From the NCBI GenBank assembly GCA_050239825.1, contig JBFXGO010000002.1, forward strand, positions 13,490 through 77,489: a DNA stretch of 64,000 bases, written 5' to 3'. The position numbers were made by a program. Below are positions 39,001 to 45,000 of this stretch, piece after piece. Position 1 is the first letter of the stretch, and each line of letters begins with the position of its first letter. Source of the stretch: a bacterium. Its GTDB lineage: Bacteria > Hydrothermota > 32-111.

Positions 39001-42000
39001 CTTGACAATGAAATGATTTTGATTAGAATGATTTTCCCTTGAGTTGTATTTAAAAAAGAAAATGAAAACATTAAATGATCAGTTGCACAAAATCCTTTCA
39101 GAGAAAGTGTCATCCGCCGATTACAGCCGCTGGCTCTCTTCTCTCCGCATAAAGGAGCTTGACGAAAGAAGCATTACGCTTATTGTTCCGACCAATGTTA
39201 TAAAAGAGATGATAGAGGATGATTTGTTTCAGGAGCTTGTGGATTCCATCCGCTCTATTATGGATAGGGACCTTCAGATAAGAATCGTTGCAGAGAAGGA
39301 CATTCATGACATCCCAAAGGAGCTCAACCCGTTTAAAAACAATGATTTTGGAATAATAGACACATCATCTCTCAACACAAAATATACTTTCGAAGAATTT
39401 GTCGTGGGAAAATCAAACGAACTCGCTTATGCCGCATCTTTCTCCTTGACAAAGACTCCTGGCGACCAGTACAATCCGTTATTTATATACGGTTCGAGCG
39501 GGCTCGGAAAGACGCATCTGTTAAATGCGATAGGAAATCAGATTAAGCAGAATGACCCGAGAAAGAAGATCTATTACCTTTCAACGGAGAGATTTCTCAA
39601 CGAATATGTCTTTGCCATTCAAGAGAAGAAAATTCTTGATTTCAGAAACAAATACAGGGAGATGGATGTTCTGCTGCTTGATGATATTCATTTCCTGAAT
39701 AAAAAAGAGGGAACGCAGGAGGAGATTTTTCACACATTCAACGCACTGTATGAAAACAACAGTCAGATTGTTTTAACATCAGACAGACCTCCCAATGAAA
39801 TTCAATCTCTTGAACAGCGGCTTGTTACAAGATTTCAGTCAGGACTCGTAGTCGACATACAGCCGCCCGATTTTGAAACAAGATTGGCGATACTAAGAAA
39901 GAAGGTGGAGAGCGACAACATACAGATAGGCGATGATTGTCTTATCTACATCGCCAATAACATTAAAAATAATGTCAGGCTTTTAATTTCAGTCATTATA
40001 AACATACTCGCGCACTCTTCTCTTCTTAAAAAGAATGTCGATATAAATCTGGTGAGAGAGGTCGTAACAGGAATAGTGAAGCCGACCCATGATTCTGTTT
40101 TTTACAGTAAAAAAATTATGCCTGCGGATATTTTGAAGACAGTCTCTGAATATTATAAAATTCCCGAATCCCAGATAACAGGAAAAAAGCGCACTGCATC
40201 ACTGGTTATACCCAGACAGATATCGGCATTCCTTATGAAGAAGTTCACTCAACTCTCCTTAAAGGAGATAGCAGAAAAACTGGGAAAGAAGGACCACTCG
40301 ACAATCATACACGCTGTAAAAAAGATTGAAGAGCTCTCCAAAAGGAATGACAGCAGAGTAAAAGAGGATATTGAGAGCATAATCAGTTTATTGAATATTG
40401 ATTAGCTGTGGATAATATAAGAACAACTTTGGTTTTTCCACATCAACTTCGGTTAACAACATAATTGTGAATATGTCTGTTGATTTTAAGGTGTAATTTT
40501 GATATAATTTAATACGGTTATGAACATATGGACACTTAATAATAGAAGTAATAAGAAAATTAATACTATAAAGGAGGAGAGATGAAATTTCACGTTGACA
40601 AACAAGAGTTTTTGAAAAACCTCAATACAATATCAAGCATTGTTCCTGCAAAACCCATTGTAACAATAATCTCCAATATTATGATTGAAGCGAAAAAAGA
40701 GACATTGTCATTTTCCTCTACTGATTTTGAAATAACAATGCATTCAGAGATGCCTGCAACAGTCACTGAGGACGGAGTGATTGTTATAAATGCAAAGACA
40801 ATAGTTGAACTTGTAAGAAAACTTCCTGAAGGCGAACTCTCAATATCTCTCTCCAATGATGAAGTATCTATAAAATCAAAGTCAGGCATTTATAAAATGC
40901 CTGTAATCAAGAAAGATGATTATGTGGAAATTTCAAGAATAGAAAAAAACAAGATGTTCAATGTTGATTCTCTTCCATTGAAATCTGCAATAGACAATTC
41001 AGTATTTGCAGTTTCCAAAGATGCCGTAAAAGTTGCAATAACCGGAGTTCTTCTTGAAGGAGCCGGAAAGAATCTGACATTTGTTGGAACAGACGGACAC
41101 AGGTTGGCATTTTATTCAATCAAAGATATTTTTGAAAAACCCATATCAAATTCTGTTATAATTCCTCCAAAGGTTTTGACGATTCTTAGAGACCTTATTG
41201 ATGATGTGGATGAATTCAGCATGGGTTTTGATGAAAAGAGAATTATGTTCAAAGTCAAGACAATAGAAGTCTGGGCAAAACTCATAGAGGGTACATATCC
41301 TGATTACAAACGAGTCATACCAACGGATAACAATAAAGTCATGATTGTCAAAAAGGATGACCTTATAAATTCTCTTAACATAATAAATGTGTTTACAAAT
41401 CCAAATACGAGGCTTGTCAAATTTGAAATAGAGAGCGGCAAGCTTATAATAAATGCGTATCAGAATCAGACAGGAGAGGGGACGGAGTTTATCGAAGTCG
41501 ACTATGAAGATAAAGAGAAGCTTGTGATAGGATTCAACAATAACTATCTTCTTGAAATACTAAAACGGATAGAGACTGAGAATGTAAAGTTTAAATTCAA
41601 GGGAGAGATGTTTGCTGTGATAGTTGAAAACGAAATGAGCAAGGTTGATCAGGAGGCAATTTATATTATAATGCCTCTCAGATTAAAGTAAAAACAGATT
41701 TATATTATTGAGTGCAAAGAGGCGGGGTAACTCCCGCCTCTTTTATTGAAAATGTAAAAGAGTGAAAATATAGGAAGGTTAGAATGTGAGGGAGATTGAG
41801 TAAAGCTAAAATCTTACTCAGCGGTGTCACCCTGAACGCCTCTATGGTTATGACTATCGTGAAGGGTCTATCAGTTTATTGCTTATTGATAATTGAAGAT
41901 TGAACTGGGGCTGCACGCAGGCGTAGCGTCGGCTCACACACTCCGCTTCGTCGCTTTATCAAGATGGGATAGCGTAGCGAGGGGTCGCCCACTTGATGGG

Positions 42001-45000
42001 CGTCTGCGCGGAGCGTCCTCGCCGACTTTGAGCTTTCATTTTCAATAAGAATTGATTTGCTTGTCCTCGGAAAAACATTGAATAGCAGTGCGGAGATGCA
42101 CTGGAATTTTTCCTCGGAAATGTAAAGACAAAATCTTACTCAGCTCCCCGTATTTTGCTCAAGGCACATGGCTCACGGCTCATGGCTGATTTTGGGGGCT
42201 GCACGCGGGTGTAGCGTCGGCTCACACACTCCGCTTCGCCGCTTAATCAAGATGGGATAGCGTAGCAAGGGGAGAACCACTTGATGGGCGTCTGCGCGGA
42301 GCGTCCTCGCCGACTTGTAGCTTTCGTGTATCAATAAGTTAATTAATTGATTGAATCTTCACAAAGCATTGGCGAGGGTGTAATGTGCGCGAGCGCACAT
42401 GATAGACGCCTCGGGCTGCACCAGAACTTTGTGAAGATTACTGTAAAGACAAAATCTTACTCAGCGGTGTCACCCTGAACGCCTCTATAGTTATGACTAT
42501 CGTGAAGGGTCTATCAGTTTATTGGTTATTGATAATTGAAGATTGTTCTGGGGCTGCACGCGGGTGTAGCGTCGGCTCACACACTCCGCTTCGCCGCTTA
42601 ATCAAGATGGGTTAGCGGAGCAAGGGGACAACCACTTGATGGGCGTCTTCGCGGAGCGTCCTCGCCGACTTTGAGCTTTCACTTTCAATAAGTTAATTAA
42701 TTGAATGAATCTTCTAAAACCATTGGCTGGGGTGTAATGGACGCGAGCGCACATGATAGACACTTCGGGTTGCACCAGAACTTTGTGAAGATTATTGTAA
42801 AGACAAAATCTTACTCAGCAGTATCACCCTGAACGCCTCTATGGTTATGACTATAGTGAAGGGTCTATCAGTTTATTGTTAATTGATTATTGAAGATTGT
42901 TCTGGGGCTGCTGGCGGGCTTAGCGTCGGCTCGCACACTTCGCTTCGCCGCTTAATCAAGATGGGATAGCGGAGCAAGAGGTCGCCCACTTGATGGGCGT
43001 CTGCGCGGAGCGTCCTCGCCGACTTGTAGCTTTCGTGTATCAATAAGTTAATTAATTGCCTGAATCTTCTAAAACCATTGGCGCGGGTGTAATGGACGCG
43101 AGCGTCCATGATAGAAAAAACGGGTTGCACCAGAAGTTTTAGAAGATTATTGAAAAGAATAAATATTAATCAGCAGTATATTGAGTGATGACTGCACTGG
43201 AATTTTTCCTCGGAAATGTAAAGACAAGTTATTTACTCAACTCCCCGCATTAAGCTCAAGGCACATGGCTCACGGCTCATGGCTGATTTTGGGGCTGCAC
43301 GCGGGTGTAGCGTCGGCTCACACACTCTGCTTCGCCGCTTAATCAAGATGGGTTAGCGGAGCAAGGGGACAACCACTTGATGGGCGTCTGCGCGGAGCGT
43401 CCTCGCCGACTTGTAGCTTACACTCTCAATAAGAATTGATTTGCTTGTCCTCGGAAAAACATTGAATAGCAGTGCGGAGATGCACTGGAATTTTTCCTCG
43501 GAAATGTAAAGACAAAATCTTACTCAGCGGTGTCACCCTGAACGCCTCTATGGTTATGACTATCGTGAAGGGTCTATCAGTTTATTGTTAATTGATTATT
43601 GAAGATTGTTCTGGGGCTGCACGCGGGTGTAGCGTCGGCTCACACACTCCGCTTTTGCTCCTATTGACAATATTGTTTAAATATTATATATTGAAATATT
43701 ATGGTTAAAAAAGCATTTAAAAATTTTAAAAAGAGCAAGAAGACCAAAAAAACAGTAAACACCGCGATATTTGTTTTTGGACTTATTGTTTTTATTGCTG
43801 TCTTTGCGGCAGTGGGCTTTGCAGTTACAATGTATTTCAGTCTTCAGAAAGAGATTCCAACCATGACAGATATGTTCATATACTCGGCTCCTTCAGCCAC
43901 TTTGATATATGATGACAACAACAGAAAAGTGACGGAACTCTTCCTTGAGAAAAGGATGCCGATTAAACTCAAAGAGCTACCTCAATACTCGATAGACGCA
44001 GTCATATCGCTTGAAGATCAGCAATTTTACTCGCATTGGGGAATAAATGTAGCGAGATTTTTTGTGGTTTTGACAAAGAATATGCTGACATTAAAAAAAG
44101 GAGCGGGAGCATCTACCATAACACAACAGCTTGCAAGGAACATGTTCCTCACAATGGAGAAGACATGGACAAGGAAGATAAAAGAGGCTCTCATAACCAT
44201 AAATCTTGAGCGCAACTTTTCAAAGGATGAAATTCTTGAAATGTATTTCAACCAGATAAACTATGGCTCGGGAGCTTACGGCATAGAGGCCGCATCAAAC
44301 ATGTATTTCAATAAATCTGCGCGGGAGCTCACTCTTGCAGAGGCAGCAATGCTTGCGGGAATTCCGCAGATTCCGGAAAAATTCAATCTTTTCAGGCATT
44401 ATGACAATGCCAAAAAACGCCAGAAGCTATGTCTAAGCAATATGCTTCAAGAAGGATACATATCAAAGGAAGAGTATGAGGATGCCGTTGATGACAGTGT
44501 GATAGTGATAAAAGGCTCCAAAGATGCAGAGTATGGAAGATACTTTATAGAGGAGGTCAGAAAAGAGGTCATATCAAGGTTTGGCATGAATACTCTCTAT
44601 AAGGGCGGTCTGAAAATCTATACAACAATGAATTCCGATATGCAGAGAGAGTCAGAAAAAGTTGTGGAAAAAAAGATGCTCTATTTTGAAAAAATGTACA
44701 AATTCAAAAATACAAAAGAAAAGTATGATGAAATATTTTCAAAAGACACGGCAATAACTGTTCCCCCGCAGTATCTTCAGGCAAGTATGGTAATAATTGA
44801 AAATGAGACAGGAGAGGTCAAGGCAATAGTCGGAGGCAGGGATTTTGAACAGTCCGAATACAACAGGGTCTTACAATCGAAGAGGCAGCCCGGTTCAATT
44901 TTTAAAATATTCCTCTTTTCAGCCGCAATAGAGAGCGGGATGAATCCGGGAGACATAATTATGGATACTCCGGTGGTTCTTGACGACGGAAGTGACACCC

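Follow-up and report, generated by a model that had tools for sequence, protein, structure and literature searches.

The gene-free gap that follows dnaN raises the question of what occupies it, and of how the same repeats came to fill other large gaps of the genome. In the window (the whole stretch of DNA analysed, 64 kb), dnaA (39044-40405) and dnaN (40582..41691, + strand) lie at the cumulative GC-skew minimum, and the gene for a PBP1A-family penicillin-binding protein (43701..45839, + strand) follows downstream. Between them lies a non-coding repeat array of 1.86 kb (41799..43654, + strand), in which every module runs head-to-tail on the + strand; coordinates and content agree with the survey's finding for this locus. 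The array is bounded by the dnaN terminator (stem 41724-41740) on one side and a promoter-like site of the PBP1A gene (43664-43692) on the other. Immediately 5' of the first module, direct reading gives an A/G-rich block of GTAAAAG/GTGAAAA-like heptamers that ends in GGGAGATTGA (41747..41798, + strand), and GTAAAAG-like blocks, and their reverse complements (CTTTTAC)n, are also present at the borders of other arrays. One ORF of at least 60 aa (83 aa) and no promoter-like site were found inside the array. An Rfam scan of the whole window yielded no family at gathering score, and at E<=1 the sole match was SNORA36, by chance, on the dnaN terminator.

The arrays follow a cyclic order that runs from L through A or A2 to K and from there through B1 or B2 back to L, with a unit length of ~290-355 nt. 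L is a 24-nt punctuation hairpin, TGTAAAGACAAAATCTTACTCAGC (family D5; 42442..42465, + strand; further copies at 41799, 42121, 42796, 43151 (a variant) and 43505); 75 of its 79 genome-wide matches at <=3 mismatches lie within arrays. Module A measures 83 nt (42466..42548, + strand; others at ~41823-41905, 42820-42902 and 43529-43611), and its slot is alternatively occupied by A2, a 50-nt run of GCTCAnG heptamers (family D7; 42145..42194, + strand; second copy ~43242-43293). The core K is 144 nt long in its reference copy (42549..42692, + strand), the other full copies ending at 42049, 42337, 43046 and 43433; as the 147-nt family D1, the five full copies start at 41903, 42191, 42546, 42900 and 43287. 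A sixth, truncated K (profile positions 2-44; 43612..43654, + strand) terminates the array and abuts unique DNA just 5' of the PBP1A promoter. B1 (103 nt; 42693..42795, + strand; others at ~42338-42441 and 43047-43150) has its own inverted repeat, GAATCTTC...GAAGATT (families I1 and I2), and its alternative B2 (71 nt; 42050..42120, + strand; second copy 43434-43504) contains a terminator-like hairpin on the + strand (42086-42103), CAGTGCGGAGATGCACTG then GAATTTTT. The complete order is L-A-K-B2-L-A2-K-B1-L-A-K-B1-L-A-K-B1-L'-(B2 tail)-L'-A2-K-B2-L-A-K(1-44).

Genome-wide, blastn with K gave 125 matches spread over 32 contigs, with a mean identity of 90.7% and 104 that reach 100 nt; an nhmmer profile gave 128 on 32 contigs (108 of at least 100 nt) and a covariance model 113, figures that reproduce the 123 matches on 32 contigs, 104 of them long, reported before. 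Counts at >=70% of module length were K 91, L 63, B1 53, A2 43, A 35 and B2 23; the earlier values of 91, 48 and 23 recur as those of K, B2 (23) and the 25-nt hairpin P (48 genome matches). Array sequence was found at 62 places (38.7 kb in total), 45 of them at least 200 nt long; the ~45 arrays, 0.2-2.2 kb in length, span ~38 kb (1.8% of the genome) and have a GC content of 0.488 versus 0.398 for the genome. More than 200 nt of array sequence was present in 17 of the 30 largest ORF-free gaps (the largest 2,383 nt, the gap after dnaN second with 2,009 nt), which bears out the description of these gaps as filled by a non-coding, nested mosaic of hairpin modules.

Such a mosaic might also be imitated by an assembly error, the repeats of a metagenome-assembled genome having been collapsed or joined into chimeras. 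The assembly is a draft (67 contigs, 920 N), many arrays lie at contig ends, and Logan contigs break at array edges; in the best-holding run they end at 41837 and resume at 43625, so that the unit order given for this and other long arrays is that of the draft. An artefact is nevertheless scarcely credible, given the identical module order in independent assemblies (the two congeners G001 and G002 and two JGI metagenome samples, with two K copies 309 nt apart in L176), a summed Logan depth of 450-3,178 inside the dnaN–PBP1A array versus 26.7 in its flanks, a ratio that fits ~100 copies, and differences of 8-12% between K copies, which mark them as real paralogues.

In the arrays of the genome, L led to A 33 times and to A2 14 times, K was entered 43 times from A and 41 times from A2 and left 59 times to B1 and 27 times to B2, B1 led to L 34 times and B2 to A2 25 times. 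The choice between A and A2 was independent of that between B1 and B2 (Fisher p=0.26), which is the expectation under recombination at shared anchors. In the dnaN–PBP1A array, TRF reported a period of 354 (2.8 copies, 89% matches). The nearest relative of a K copy lay within its own array for 20 of 86 copies (2.1 expected), identity being 91.1% within and 88.1% between arrays (0 of 2,000 permutations as extreme). The best copy is 97.2% identical to the consensus (mean 92.0%) and none is identical to it, thus giving no sign of a recent burst or master sequence. Short K matches number 20, and 19 of them are pieces of the 5' part that break off within the left arm. A satellite without a transposase, spread and homogenised by ectopic gene conversion, unequal crossing-over and replication slippage at hairpins, would fit the head-to-tail arrays and their period, the higher identity within arrays, the free reshuffling of cassettes between constant anchors, the lack of identical copies, and the left-arm breaks that template switching at a hairpin predicts; the strand bias described below would then stem from selection, e.g., for hairpin stability or co-orientation with transcription. 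Such a process is rather unlikely, however, as it does not account for the arrival of units at 45 scattered intergenic sites whose flanks show no homology to one another.

Within K, a long imperfect hairpin of 28 pairs over 99 nt (GTCGGC...GCCGAC; 42571..42669, + strand) follows a conserved tag, GTAG-C (42566-42570); the long hairpin previously reported for the core is upheld. Across 118 distinct copies, 95.7% of cells were paired and 15 of the 28 pairs were changed on both sides, compared with 3.75±1.4 in shuffles (0 of 500 reached this value) and 4-6 in slid registers. In a set of 23 copies from the genome carrying the window (G000), the two congeners and two metagenome samples, the covariation score was 0.136; shuffles gave 0.074, none of the 500 coming up to the observed score, and slid registers never exceeded 0.056. 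The survey's impression of little covariation thus gives way to strong compensatory change once congener and metagenome copies are added. The hairpin foot (GTCGGC/GCCGAC) and the 5' TAGCG tag were invariant or nearly so in all 23 copies, and the tip is missing from a short variant and in other cases is occupied by the P hairpin; recombination alone leaves unexplained why different species keep the same foot and tag but vary freely at the tip. The symmetry of the palindrome arms could reflect intrastrand repair instead of selection. A small hairpin at the 5' end of K (H1) was not conserved between species (69.6% paired, zero covariation).

DNA searches recovered K in 3 of 41 relatives, and the covariance model, run on 19 genomes of the class, in 3 that belong to a single genus, so that the restriction to the genus holds among the genomes searched. 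K copies of the other species are 83-89% identical to those of the window, dnaN is 80-82% identical, and the spacer is unalignable. Presence at a given site also differs: the dnaN–PBP1A spacer of G002 measures ~98 nt and is empty of modules, and elsewhere G000 retains no more than K(1-33) at a site that holds a full unit in a metagenomic relative.

Of the 45 arrays, 38 carry the K strand on the G-rich strand (p=3e-6), as do 34 of 38 when neighbouring arrays are merged. With the skew minimum at dnaA, the G-rich strand corresponds to the leading-strand sequence and hence to the lagging-strand template. Where genes stand in tandem, the bias cannot be told apart from an effect of gene orientation, and only 16 arrays, those between divergent or convergent genes, are free of this confound; among them, K lies on the G-rich strand in 13 (p=0.02). 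In the single array where genes and skew conflict, orientation follows the genes. Fourteen arrays point the same way as the two genes that flank them and 2 point against both, and this, together with their location between terminator and promoter, the terminator-like hairpin of B2 and the constraint on the K hairpin, would suit elements that serve the host as RNA (terminators, 3'-end stabilisers, operon insulators) or, at the DNA level, as sites for nucleoid proteins, gyrase or the proteins of replication. REPs are described in such roles in E. coli (PMC3733652; bioRxiv 10.64898/2026.03.23.713779). A host function is nonetheless unlikely as the reason for the arrays: no single array is needed, since presence at the same site differs between congeners, array length varies over 0.2-2.2 kb, the array contains no promoter-like site, and G-T versus A-C mismatch counts in the K pair table showed no strand preference.

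Replication-related orientation and ~100-nt imperfect palindromes in direct arrays would also be compatible with integron attC/CALIN arrays or sites of another site-specific recombinase, the spacers being empty cassettes. Adjacent arrays are in places separated by small accessory genes, which a reading of the translations names as an AbiEii/AbiEi-like pair, a nucleotidyltransferase and an AAA ATPase. The attC core sites have the consensus RYYYAAC / GTTRRRY, which direct reading did not find in K. As the spacers consist of the same few non-coding modules, not of diverse ORF cassettes, and none of the three tyrosine recombinases that pass the family cut-off adjoins an array, this origin is highly improbable.

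Four Y1_Tnp genes are present in the genome, each bracketed by its own inverted repeats, one of them between tRNA-Ala and 23S rRNA in the rRNA operon, as the survey had stated. They are single syntenic copies encoding proteins of ~260-300 aa with Y1_Tnp and a C-terminal HTH_23/HTH_28 domain, and their non-palindromic inverted repeats belong to small families whose members occur singly or as doublets. Classification as classical RAYTs was rejected; size, HTH, single syntenic copies and non-palindromic flanking repeats fit the TIRYT / TnpA-REP subclass 2.1, a type already described, and the P hairpin, which starts GGGGACAC, fits its published motif GGGGWSAS (PMC3733652; PMC6006769). For subclass 2.1, published accounts describe no high-copy REP partner, whereas the inverted repeats are here embedded, fixed and co-oriented, in a 100-copy hairpin family. 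Seven of 20 R2-type copies lie 25-55 nt before the 5' edge of an array and five inside arrays, all of those at arrays co-oriented, with none at a 3' edge and none inverted; they follow K at a fixed point, at about position 54. Copies of the repeats of two Y1 genes (R1/R2-type) keep fixed spots and array orientation throughout, at array 5' edges and inside K, which gives a physical link to the Y1 repeats that the survey had understated and which recombination alone leaves unexplained. The motif TAG-S-G-N-CGG is common to K and the inverted repeats R2, R3 and R4 of three of the four Y1 genes, unlike the flank of R1, which reads CAGGGACGG. Outside the repeat families it occurs 32 times versus 48 expected from base composition; this short 9-nt head, being within expectation, marks nothing beyond these families. 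The proposal that the four enzymes spread the arrays as RAYTs fares less well: K flanks no Y1 gene in G000, and in G001 and G002 no Y1 gene lies in one contig neighbourhood with K, a point in favour of recombination without an enzyme. The defining REPtron arrangement is therefore lacking and any mobilisation by these genes putative, and 30 of 41 relatives have the Y1 family but only 3 of 41 have K.

The arrays are probably best read as a non-coding, non-autonomous and selfish mosaic of REP/REPIN-BIME/NIME type, seeded by Y1 enzymes and grown locally. Its key unit would be K, with a conserved GC-rich foot and TAGCG tag and a tip that may be shortened, replaced or invaded by small hairpins. An HUH Y1 enzyme, for which the four TIRYT-like proteins are the sole candidates in the genome, would recognise foot and tag folded as single-stranded DNA on the lagging-strand template and occasionally seed a unit, in one orientation, at a new intergenic site. 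Arrays would then grow and be reshuffled locally through unequal recombination or switches of template, with K and L as the constant anchors, cassettes A/A2 and B1/B2 being swapped and 5' K fragments left at breakpoints. They would persist as selfish passengers that the host tolerates in the space between terminator and promoter, with possible side effects on transcription or DNA structure.

Among known repeats, the NIMEs of Neisseria are large intergenic mosaics of 50-150-nt RS units of several families between 20-bp dRS3 palindromic repeats. The present arrays share this plan, with L in the role of dRS3, but the sequences are unrelated, L (read directly) has neither the A/T-start stem nor the CGTC tag of that family, and, to our knowledge, neither the strictly cyclic order nor the long hairpin of K is matched in NIMEs. 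With the BIMEs of E. coli they share a palindromic unit, a few alternative linker motifs, intergenic location and up to about a dozen repeats; REP orientation is described as alternating in BIMEs (PMC2817692), whereas all modules here are head-to-tail, in units of ~290-355 nt instead of tens of nt. Likenesses to the REP/REPIN and RAYT systems of E. coli and Pseudomonas comprise high-copy extragenic palindromes with a 5' (G)TAG tag by a GC-rich stem, long imperfect hairpins, lineage-bound inheritance, tandem clusters that include flanks, and orientation mirroring the two replichores (PMC3116915; PMC3733652). K differs in its 28 pairs over 99 nt versus stems of 6-13 bp, in not consisting of two inverted GTAG-tagged REPs (its 3' side lacks CTAC), in having neither a K-flanked Y1 gene nor a dominant identical master copy, and in that the majority of copies stand in arrays, not singly. 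Size, which the survey had put forward as new, is not: in P. fluorescens SBW25, REPINs are reported that measure 71-110 bp and stand in tandem clusters of >700 bp (PMC3116915). IS200/IS605 elements and their non-autonomous derivatives are likewise hairpin-dependent and strand-specific, with the same bias of the active strand to the lagging-strand template (PMC5027513); here an IS200-type short TnpA is lacking, TnpB was not found in the genome, and neither defined left and right ends nor a target tetranucleotide could be established for the arrays. The likeness to REP/BIME-type DNA that the survey proposed is thus confirmed, and the arrays are not a new category; they are a large, unusually orderly relative of REP/BIME/NIME repeats, in which the bias of K to the lagging-strand template and the fixed, co-oriented Y1-gene inverted repeats are new.

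The window contains a second, smaller array (2500..2996, + strand) of the order L-A-K-B variant-L'-...-A2-K(1-35), directly followed by an inverted pair of heptamer blocks (2997-3130).

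In the draft, metagenome-derived assembly of G000 (2,115,113 bp, 67 contigs, G+C 0.398), which carries the window at C3:13490-77489, dnaA (39044-40405) and dnaN (40582-41691) lie upstream of an intrinsic terminator (stem 41724-41740), and the PBP1A gene, starting at 43701, is preceded by a promoter-like site TTGACA-17-TATATT (43664-43692). The 1.86 kb from terminator to promoter have a G+C content of 0.45-0.52 and contain a single ORF of at least 60 aa (83 aa, minus strand). No Rfam family reached its gathering score in the whole window; at E<=1 one chance snoRNA match was obtained (E=0.33), which lies on the dnaN terminator, outside the repeats. 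When searched for repeats and scanned for coverage against the genome, the array in this gap (41799-43654) resolved into modules, all on the plus strand: L (24 nt, a small hairpin), A (83 nt) or its alternative A2 (50 nt, a run of GCTCAnG heptamers), the core K (144 nt), and B1 (103 nt, with an inverted repeat of its own) or its alternative B2 (71 nt, with a terminator-like hairpin). The order is cyclic, from L to A or A2, to K, to B1 or B2 and back to L; the period of 354 nt reported by TRF corresponds to the unit L-A-K-B1, and the 3' end of the array is a K fragment (positions 2-44) abutting the PBP1A promoter. A third type of B at window positions 2752-2820 indicates that there are more module alleles than the six defined. 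Blocks of 7-nt repeats are common at array borders (window 2997-3130; edges on contigs C25, C6, C61 and C24): one side has (GTAAAAG)n, the opposite side (CTTTTAC)n or (AACyCGn)n, and in some cases the blocks form an inverted pair. A2 is itself a heptamer run. The neighbouring dnaA-dnaN spacer (window 40406-40581) is AT-rich (G+C about 0.29 in the 300-nt bin 40400-40699), lies at the GC-skew minimum and is a candidate oriC.

Genome-wide, L is followed by A 33 times and by A2 14 times, A and A2 are followed by K 43 and 41 times, K by B1 59 times and by B2 27 times, B1 by L 34 times, and B2 by A2 25 times with a variant of L in between. The choice made in the A slot is independent of that made in the B slot (the four combinations occur 20, 6, 18 and 11 times; Fisher p=0.26). 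Since the slots combine freely, L-A-K-B1 and L-A2-K-B2 were rejected as two fixed composites. K yielded 125 matches on 32 contigs with blastn (104 of at least 100 nt), 128 on 32 contigs with nhmmer (108 of at least 100 nt) and 113 in G000 with a covariance model. Module matches occupy 62 places and 38.7 kb in total; the 45 arrays of at least 200 nt sum to 37.7 kb with a G+C content of 0.488, and array DNA makes up 1.8% of the 2.1-Mb genome. With crude gene calls (ORFs of at least 90 aa), array DNA exceeds 200 nt in 17 of the 30 largest ORF-free gaps; the longest of these gaps measures 2,383 nt, and the dnaN-PBP1A gap, at 2,009 nt, ranks second. These figures agree with those of the survey, which described a 120-nt element present 123 times in mosaics that fill the largest gene-free gaps.

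The arrays break short-read assemblies of the lineage, and an assembly artefact is one rival explanation of their architecture. Unit order inside the dnaN-PBP1A array has the draft assembly as its sole source; the Logan contigs of the best-covering of three DNA runs contain the flanks and, inside the array, only pieces of 60-165 nt. Joints among these contigs, with skips of 307, 354, 1144 and 69 nt, are indistinguishable from junctions at other arrays. The depth ratio of array to flanks in the Logan contigs fits about 100 copies.

K contains an imperfect hairpin of 99 nt and 28 pairs, bounded by GTCGGC...GCCGAC. RNAalifold did not return it for the plus strand of 118 K copies, and it was then fixed by constrained DNA folding (-17.0 kcal/mol for the plus strand, -21.6 kcal/mol for the minus strand); RNA folding gave z-scores of -2.6 and -2.5. 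Among these 118 distinct copies (105 from G000 and 13 from its two congeners, G001 and G002), 95.7% of the cells are paired and both-sided changes affect 15 of the 28 pairs (48 cells), compared with 3.75±1.4 in shuffles, none of 500 of which reached 15; slid registers of the hairpin show 4-6 such pairs. A smaller alignment, A1, of 23 copies (5 from the window, 12 from the congeners and 6 from contigs of two metagenome samples) has 9 pairs with both-sided change versus 4.5±1.4 in shuffles (reached by 1 of 500), and its covariation score of 0.136 compares with 0.074 in shuffles (reached by 0 of 500) and at most 0.056 in slid registers. Invariance or near-invariance in A1 is confined to the columns of the 5' tag TAGCG and to those of the outer stem with its near flanks. 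The tag stands directly 5' of the GTCGGC stem in all 23 copies, with T, G, C and G invariant and A nearly so, and is preceded by a variable base (G, A or T). The tip is about 20 nt shorter in one variant in A1 and elsewhere is swapped for a 25-nt hairpin, P (GGGGACAC...GTCCCC). Conservation of the foot combined with freedom of the tip is the pattern of a DNA hairpin recognised by a protein; in a structured RNA, conserved loops would be more likely. A function for the host, either as RNA or as DNA sites, is another rival explanation of the arrays. H1, a small hairpin at the 5' end of K, is not kept between species (69.6% paired and without covariation in A1) and is unsupported outside G000; as a CGTC-type REP it was ruled out against the family definition in section 6 of PMC3733652.

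Short matches to the K profile are 5' parts in 19 of 20 cases (positions 2 to 35-66), and the sole 3' part is truncated where its contig stops, by which K as a junction of two end-to-end MITEs was ruled out. The sequence that follows a 5' part is either unique DNA or one of four elements: L where the part ends at about position 36, a repeat of the type flanking the Y1 genes where it ends near position 54 (the tandem K(1-54)-repeat-K(1-54)-repeat-K also occurs), a 47-nt module M at position 59 or 66, or hairpin P at position 65. The left arm of the hairpin is thus a zone in which breaks or insertions are favoured; such a zone fits template switching at the hairpin as well as targeted insertion of other hairpin elements.

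Searches with DNA sequence found K in 3 of 41 relatives, G000 included, which is the whole genus sampled (both other species), and in 0 of the 38 others; the covariance model matched 3 of the 19 genomes of the class (113, 16 and 8 matches) and none of the other 16. As the genomes searched are samples, K is described as not found in those searched. An 18-nt K pattern had only chance matches, in high-GC organisms, in the genome collection, which may not include G000 itself. One K pattern had no match in viral contigs, and one whole unit showed no similarity to the plasmid and phage collections. This K pattern did occur in 10 contigs from two JGI metagenome samples, the flanks of which are 70-80% identical to G000. 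Genomes differ at orthologous sites: the dnaN-PBP1A spacer of G002 has about 98 nt and no module, and the contig of G001 stops 118 nt past dnaN. On metagenome contig L173, elements are present at the site of the C20 array of G000, and at another site a relative has a full unit versus K(1-33) only in G000. The counterpart of the C27 array in G001 is a run of N, and no single contig of G001 or G002 was found to carry the flanks of the C50 array together.

Congener copies of K share 83-89% identity with K of the window; for dnaN the corresponding DNA identity is 80-82%, and the spacer is unalignable. The consensus of the K family is thus constrained. The 105 copies of G000 have a mean identity to the consensus of 92.0%; as no copy is above 97.2%, nothing points to a recent burst. 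Recombination alone is also a rival explanation of the arrays, and local relatedness among copies bears on it: identity is 91.1% within arrays (109 pairs) versus 88.1% between arrays (5,351 pairs), and the nearest neighbour of a K copy lies in the same array in 20 of 86 cases versus 2.1 expected (0 of 2,000 permutations reached the observed value).

Array orientation was compared with the sign of GC skew over the 30 kb around each array, with arrays masked. The two agree in 38 of 45 arrays (p=3e-6), in 34 of 38 after arrays less than 5 kb apart were merged and one mixed cluster was dropped, and in 13 of the 16 arrays between divergent or convergent genes (p=0.02), where neighbouring transcription gives no direction. 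The cumulative GC skew of the window has its minimum at dnaA, so the G-rich strand is the leading-strand sequence, i.e., the lagging-strand template. Passages of PMC5027513 describe IS200/IS605 Y1 transposases as acting on the lagging-strand template, and parts of PMC3116915 describe tandem REP arrays in P. fluorescens SBW25 with an orientation mirroring the replichores. Arrays are co-oriented with both neighbouring genes 14 times and opposed to both twice, and divergent spacers are over-represented among them (10 of 32 two-sided contexts versus 135 of 1,744 genome-wide).

G000 has four Y1_Tnp matches above the curated cut-off (R1-R4), open frames of 273-303 aa, each bracketed by its own inverted repeat. 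A scan for helix-turn-helix domains covered two of the four proteins; the C-terminus of R2 matched HTH_23/HTH_28 at 20.5 and 16.9 bits, below the curated cut-offs of 24.6 and 25, and R3 had no HTH match. R4 is syntenic in both congeners, with the head of its repeat conserved, and the family is common in the phylum, being present in 30 of 41 relatives and reaching 16 matches in a single genome. By Y1_Tnp core, length, C-terminal HTH (in R2, sub-cut-off) and flanking inverted repeats, the four genes fit both the TIRYT genes as described in section 16 of Di Nocera et al. (PMC3733652) and subclass 2.1 of TnpA-REP as described in section 20 of Quentin et al. (PMC6006769), the latter section reporting that no REP-like partner was found for the subclass. 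One TIRYT-like gene with its inverted repeats is located in an rRNA operon (C5:4330-5109, equivalent to L116:1090-1869, minus strand), between tRNA-Ala (L116:1920-1992) and the start of the 23S rRNA (L116:1-852).

Comparison of coordinates revealed no K near or flanking any Y1 match in G000, G001 or G002. The Y1 repeats are nonetheless physically linked to the arrays. Repeats of the R2 type (at most 2 mismatches) number 20: two flank R2, seven precede an array, at 25-55 nt from its 5' edge, five are inside arrays and the other six have no such association. The 12 copies associated with arrays all share the orientation of their array, and none is at a 3' edge; two copies of the R1 type were also found at array 5' edges. 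The motif TAG-S-G-N-CGG is common to K and the inverted repeats of R2, R3 and R4, and the flank of R1 itself reads CAGGGACGG; outside K and the inverted-repeat families this short motif is no commoner than by chance (32 observed versus 48 expected). Hairpin P (GGGGACACACCG(A/T)AGGAATGTCCCC) flanks no Y1 gene here and starts with GGGGWSAS, a motif published for TIRYT-gene inverted repeats; it has 48 matches in G000 (e.g., on C64, at C20:7057 and at C39:5832), sits within B1 or within the tip of K, and also occurs on a metagenome contig (L178:1555-1585). TnpB was not found in G000, and none of the three tyrosine recombinases above cut-off adjoins an array.

Set against known element classes, K shares with the GTAG-tagged REP (Di Nocera 2013) an unpaired GTAG-like tag beside the stem, but in those the palindrome measures 20-40 bp and its stem 6-13 bp, and of the 99 nt and 28 pairs of K only the outer 6-bp stem is REP-sized. 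A REPtron or REPIN-RAYT system has, on either side of its Y1 (RAYT) gene, the REP or REPIN mobilised by that gene, whereas each of the four Y1 genes here has different inverted repeats of its own, without K. A REPIN consists of two inverted REPs with tags at both outer ends, whereas the 3' flank of K, TT-(N)NAGC, is not the complement of the 5' tag; REPIN populations also have a frequent identical master, which the K copies of G000 lack. The linker mosaic of BIMEs is present here too, but BIMEs have REPs in alternating orientation and all modules of an array share one orientation. NIMEs are repeat units flanked by the 20-bp repeats dRS3 (CGTC-1). L punctuates units as dRS3 does, but has neither the CGTC tag nor the 8-bp stem with an A/T start described in section 6 of PMC3733652; it works like NIME punctuation and is not a member. 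MITE units have terminal inverted repeats and a target-site duplication; no such duplication was seen at the edges of the 45 arrays, and inverted heptamer blocks and L bracket some arrays, inconsistently. CRISPR arrays have unique spacers, whereas every inter-repeat segment here is itself repeated 23-91 times. An integron-like platform is a further rival explanation. The attC core sites of integrons read RYYYAAC...GTTRRRY. Read against this consensus, K has no such core sites, and whereas integrons and CALINs carry ORF cassettes served by IntI, the spacers here are repeated non-coding modules with no recombinase gene beside the arrays.

The best fit to these observations is that the arrays are a selfish, non-coding family of hairpin repeats, restricted to this lineage and of the same kind as REP/REPIN-BIME/NIME. 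Its units would be seeded rarely and strand-specifically at new intergenic sites, and arrays would then grow and be reshuffled locally when the constant anchors, K and L, recombine with one another. The likeliest seeding agent is a Y1 enzyme, on account of the strand bias, the tag at the foot of the hairpin, the co-oriented repeats embedded in arrays and the want of other candidates, and not of the arrangement that defines a REPtron, which is absent. If this reading holds, the genus would be an unusually clean natural system for the spread and pile-up of hairpin repeats, with a 100-copy family, a strict module order, a conserved foot and free tip, a clear replication-strand bias, and visible gain and loss between sister species. 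TIRYT-type inverted repeats at fixed places in a high-copy hairpin family would also provide a concrete substrate for enzyme tests. A bolder proposal, which we consider improbable, is that K is the high-copy DNA partner of the TIRYT/subclass 2.1 Y1 enzymes, which would read the TAG-S-G-N-CGG foot and insert strand-specifically, the arrays serving as landing pads. On this proposal the hairpins would be extruded from the lagging-strand template and the pads would trap Y1 inverted repeats, other small hairpins and small accessory genes. If true, the arrays would be a hairpin-based, integron-like platform without an integrase, and K a partner of a kind that the published accounts of TIRYT and subclass 2.1 do not report.

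Some further features of the genome are recorded here. The single reverse transcriptase match (RVT_1, E 2.5e-12) is a 498-aa frame at C17:34300-34725 on the minus strand, far from arrays. Small accessory genes are found between neighbouring arrays at C28:24616-25984, C43:6857-7291 and C39:6735-8003; as read from their translations only, they look like an AbiEii/AbiEi-like toxin-antitoxin pair, a nucleotidyltransferase and an AAA ATPase. Genes between neighbouring arrays also include, by the same reading, membrane proteins, and none is transposase-like. Converging doublets of Y1 inverted repeats, 100-280 nt apart and enclosing no gene, are present at C22:10781/10883, C14:36255/36449, C28:13896/14090, C41:22136/22329, C47:6392/6587, C19:6836/6960 and 9972/10096, C9:37880/38157 and C33:9180/9432, and look like gene-less derivatives of Y1 elements. 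Two identical copies of ATATAGGGGCGGGGGACTGATAAAAATAATGAA at C12:21236 and 23322, 2.1 kb apart in direct orientation, may represent another repeat family with the same head motif.
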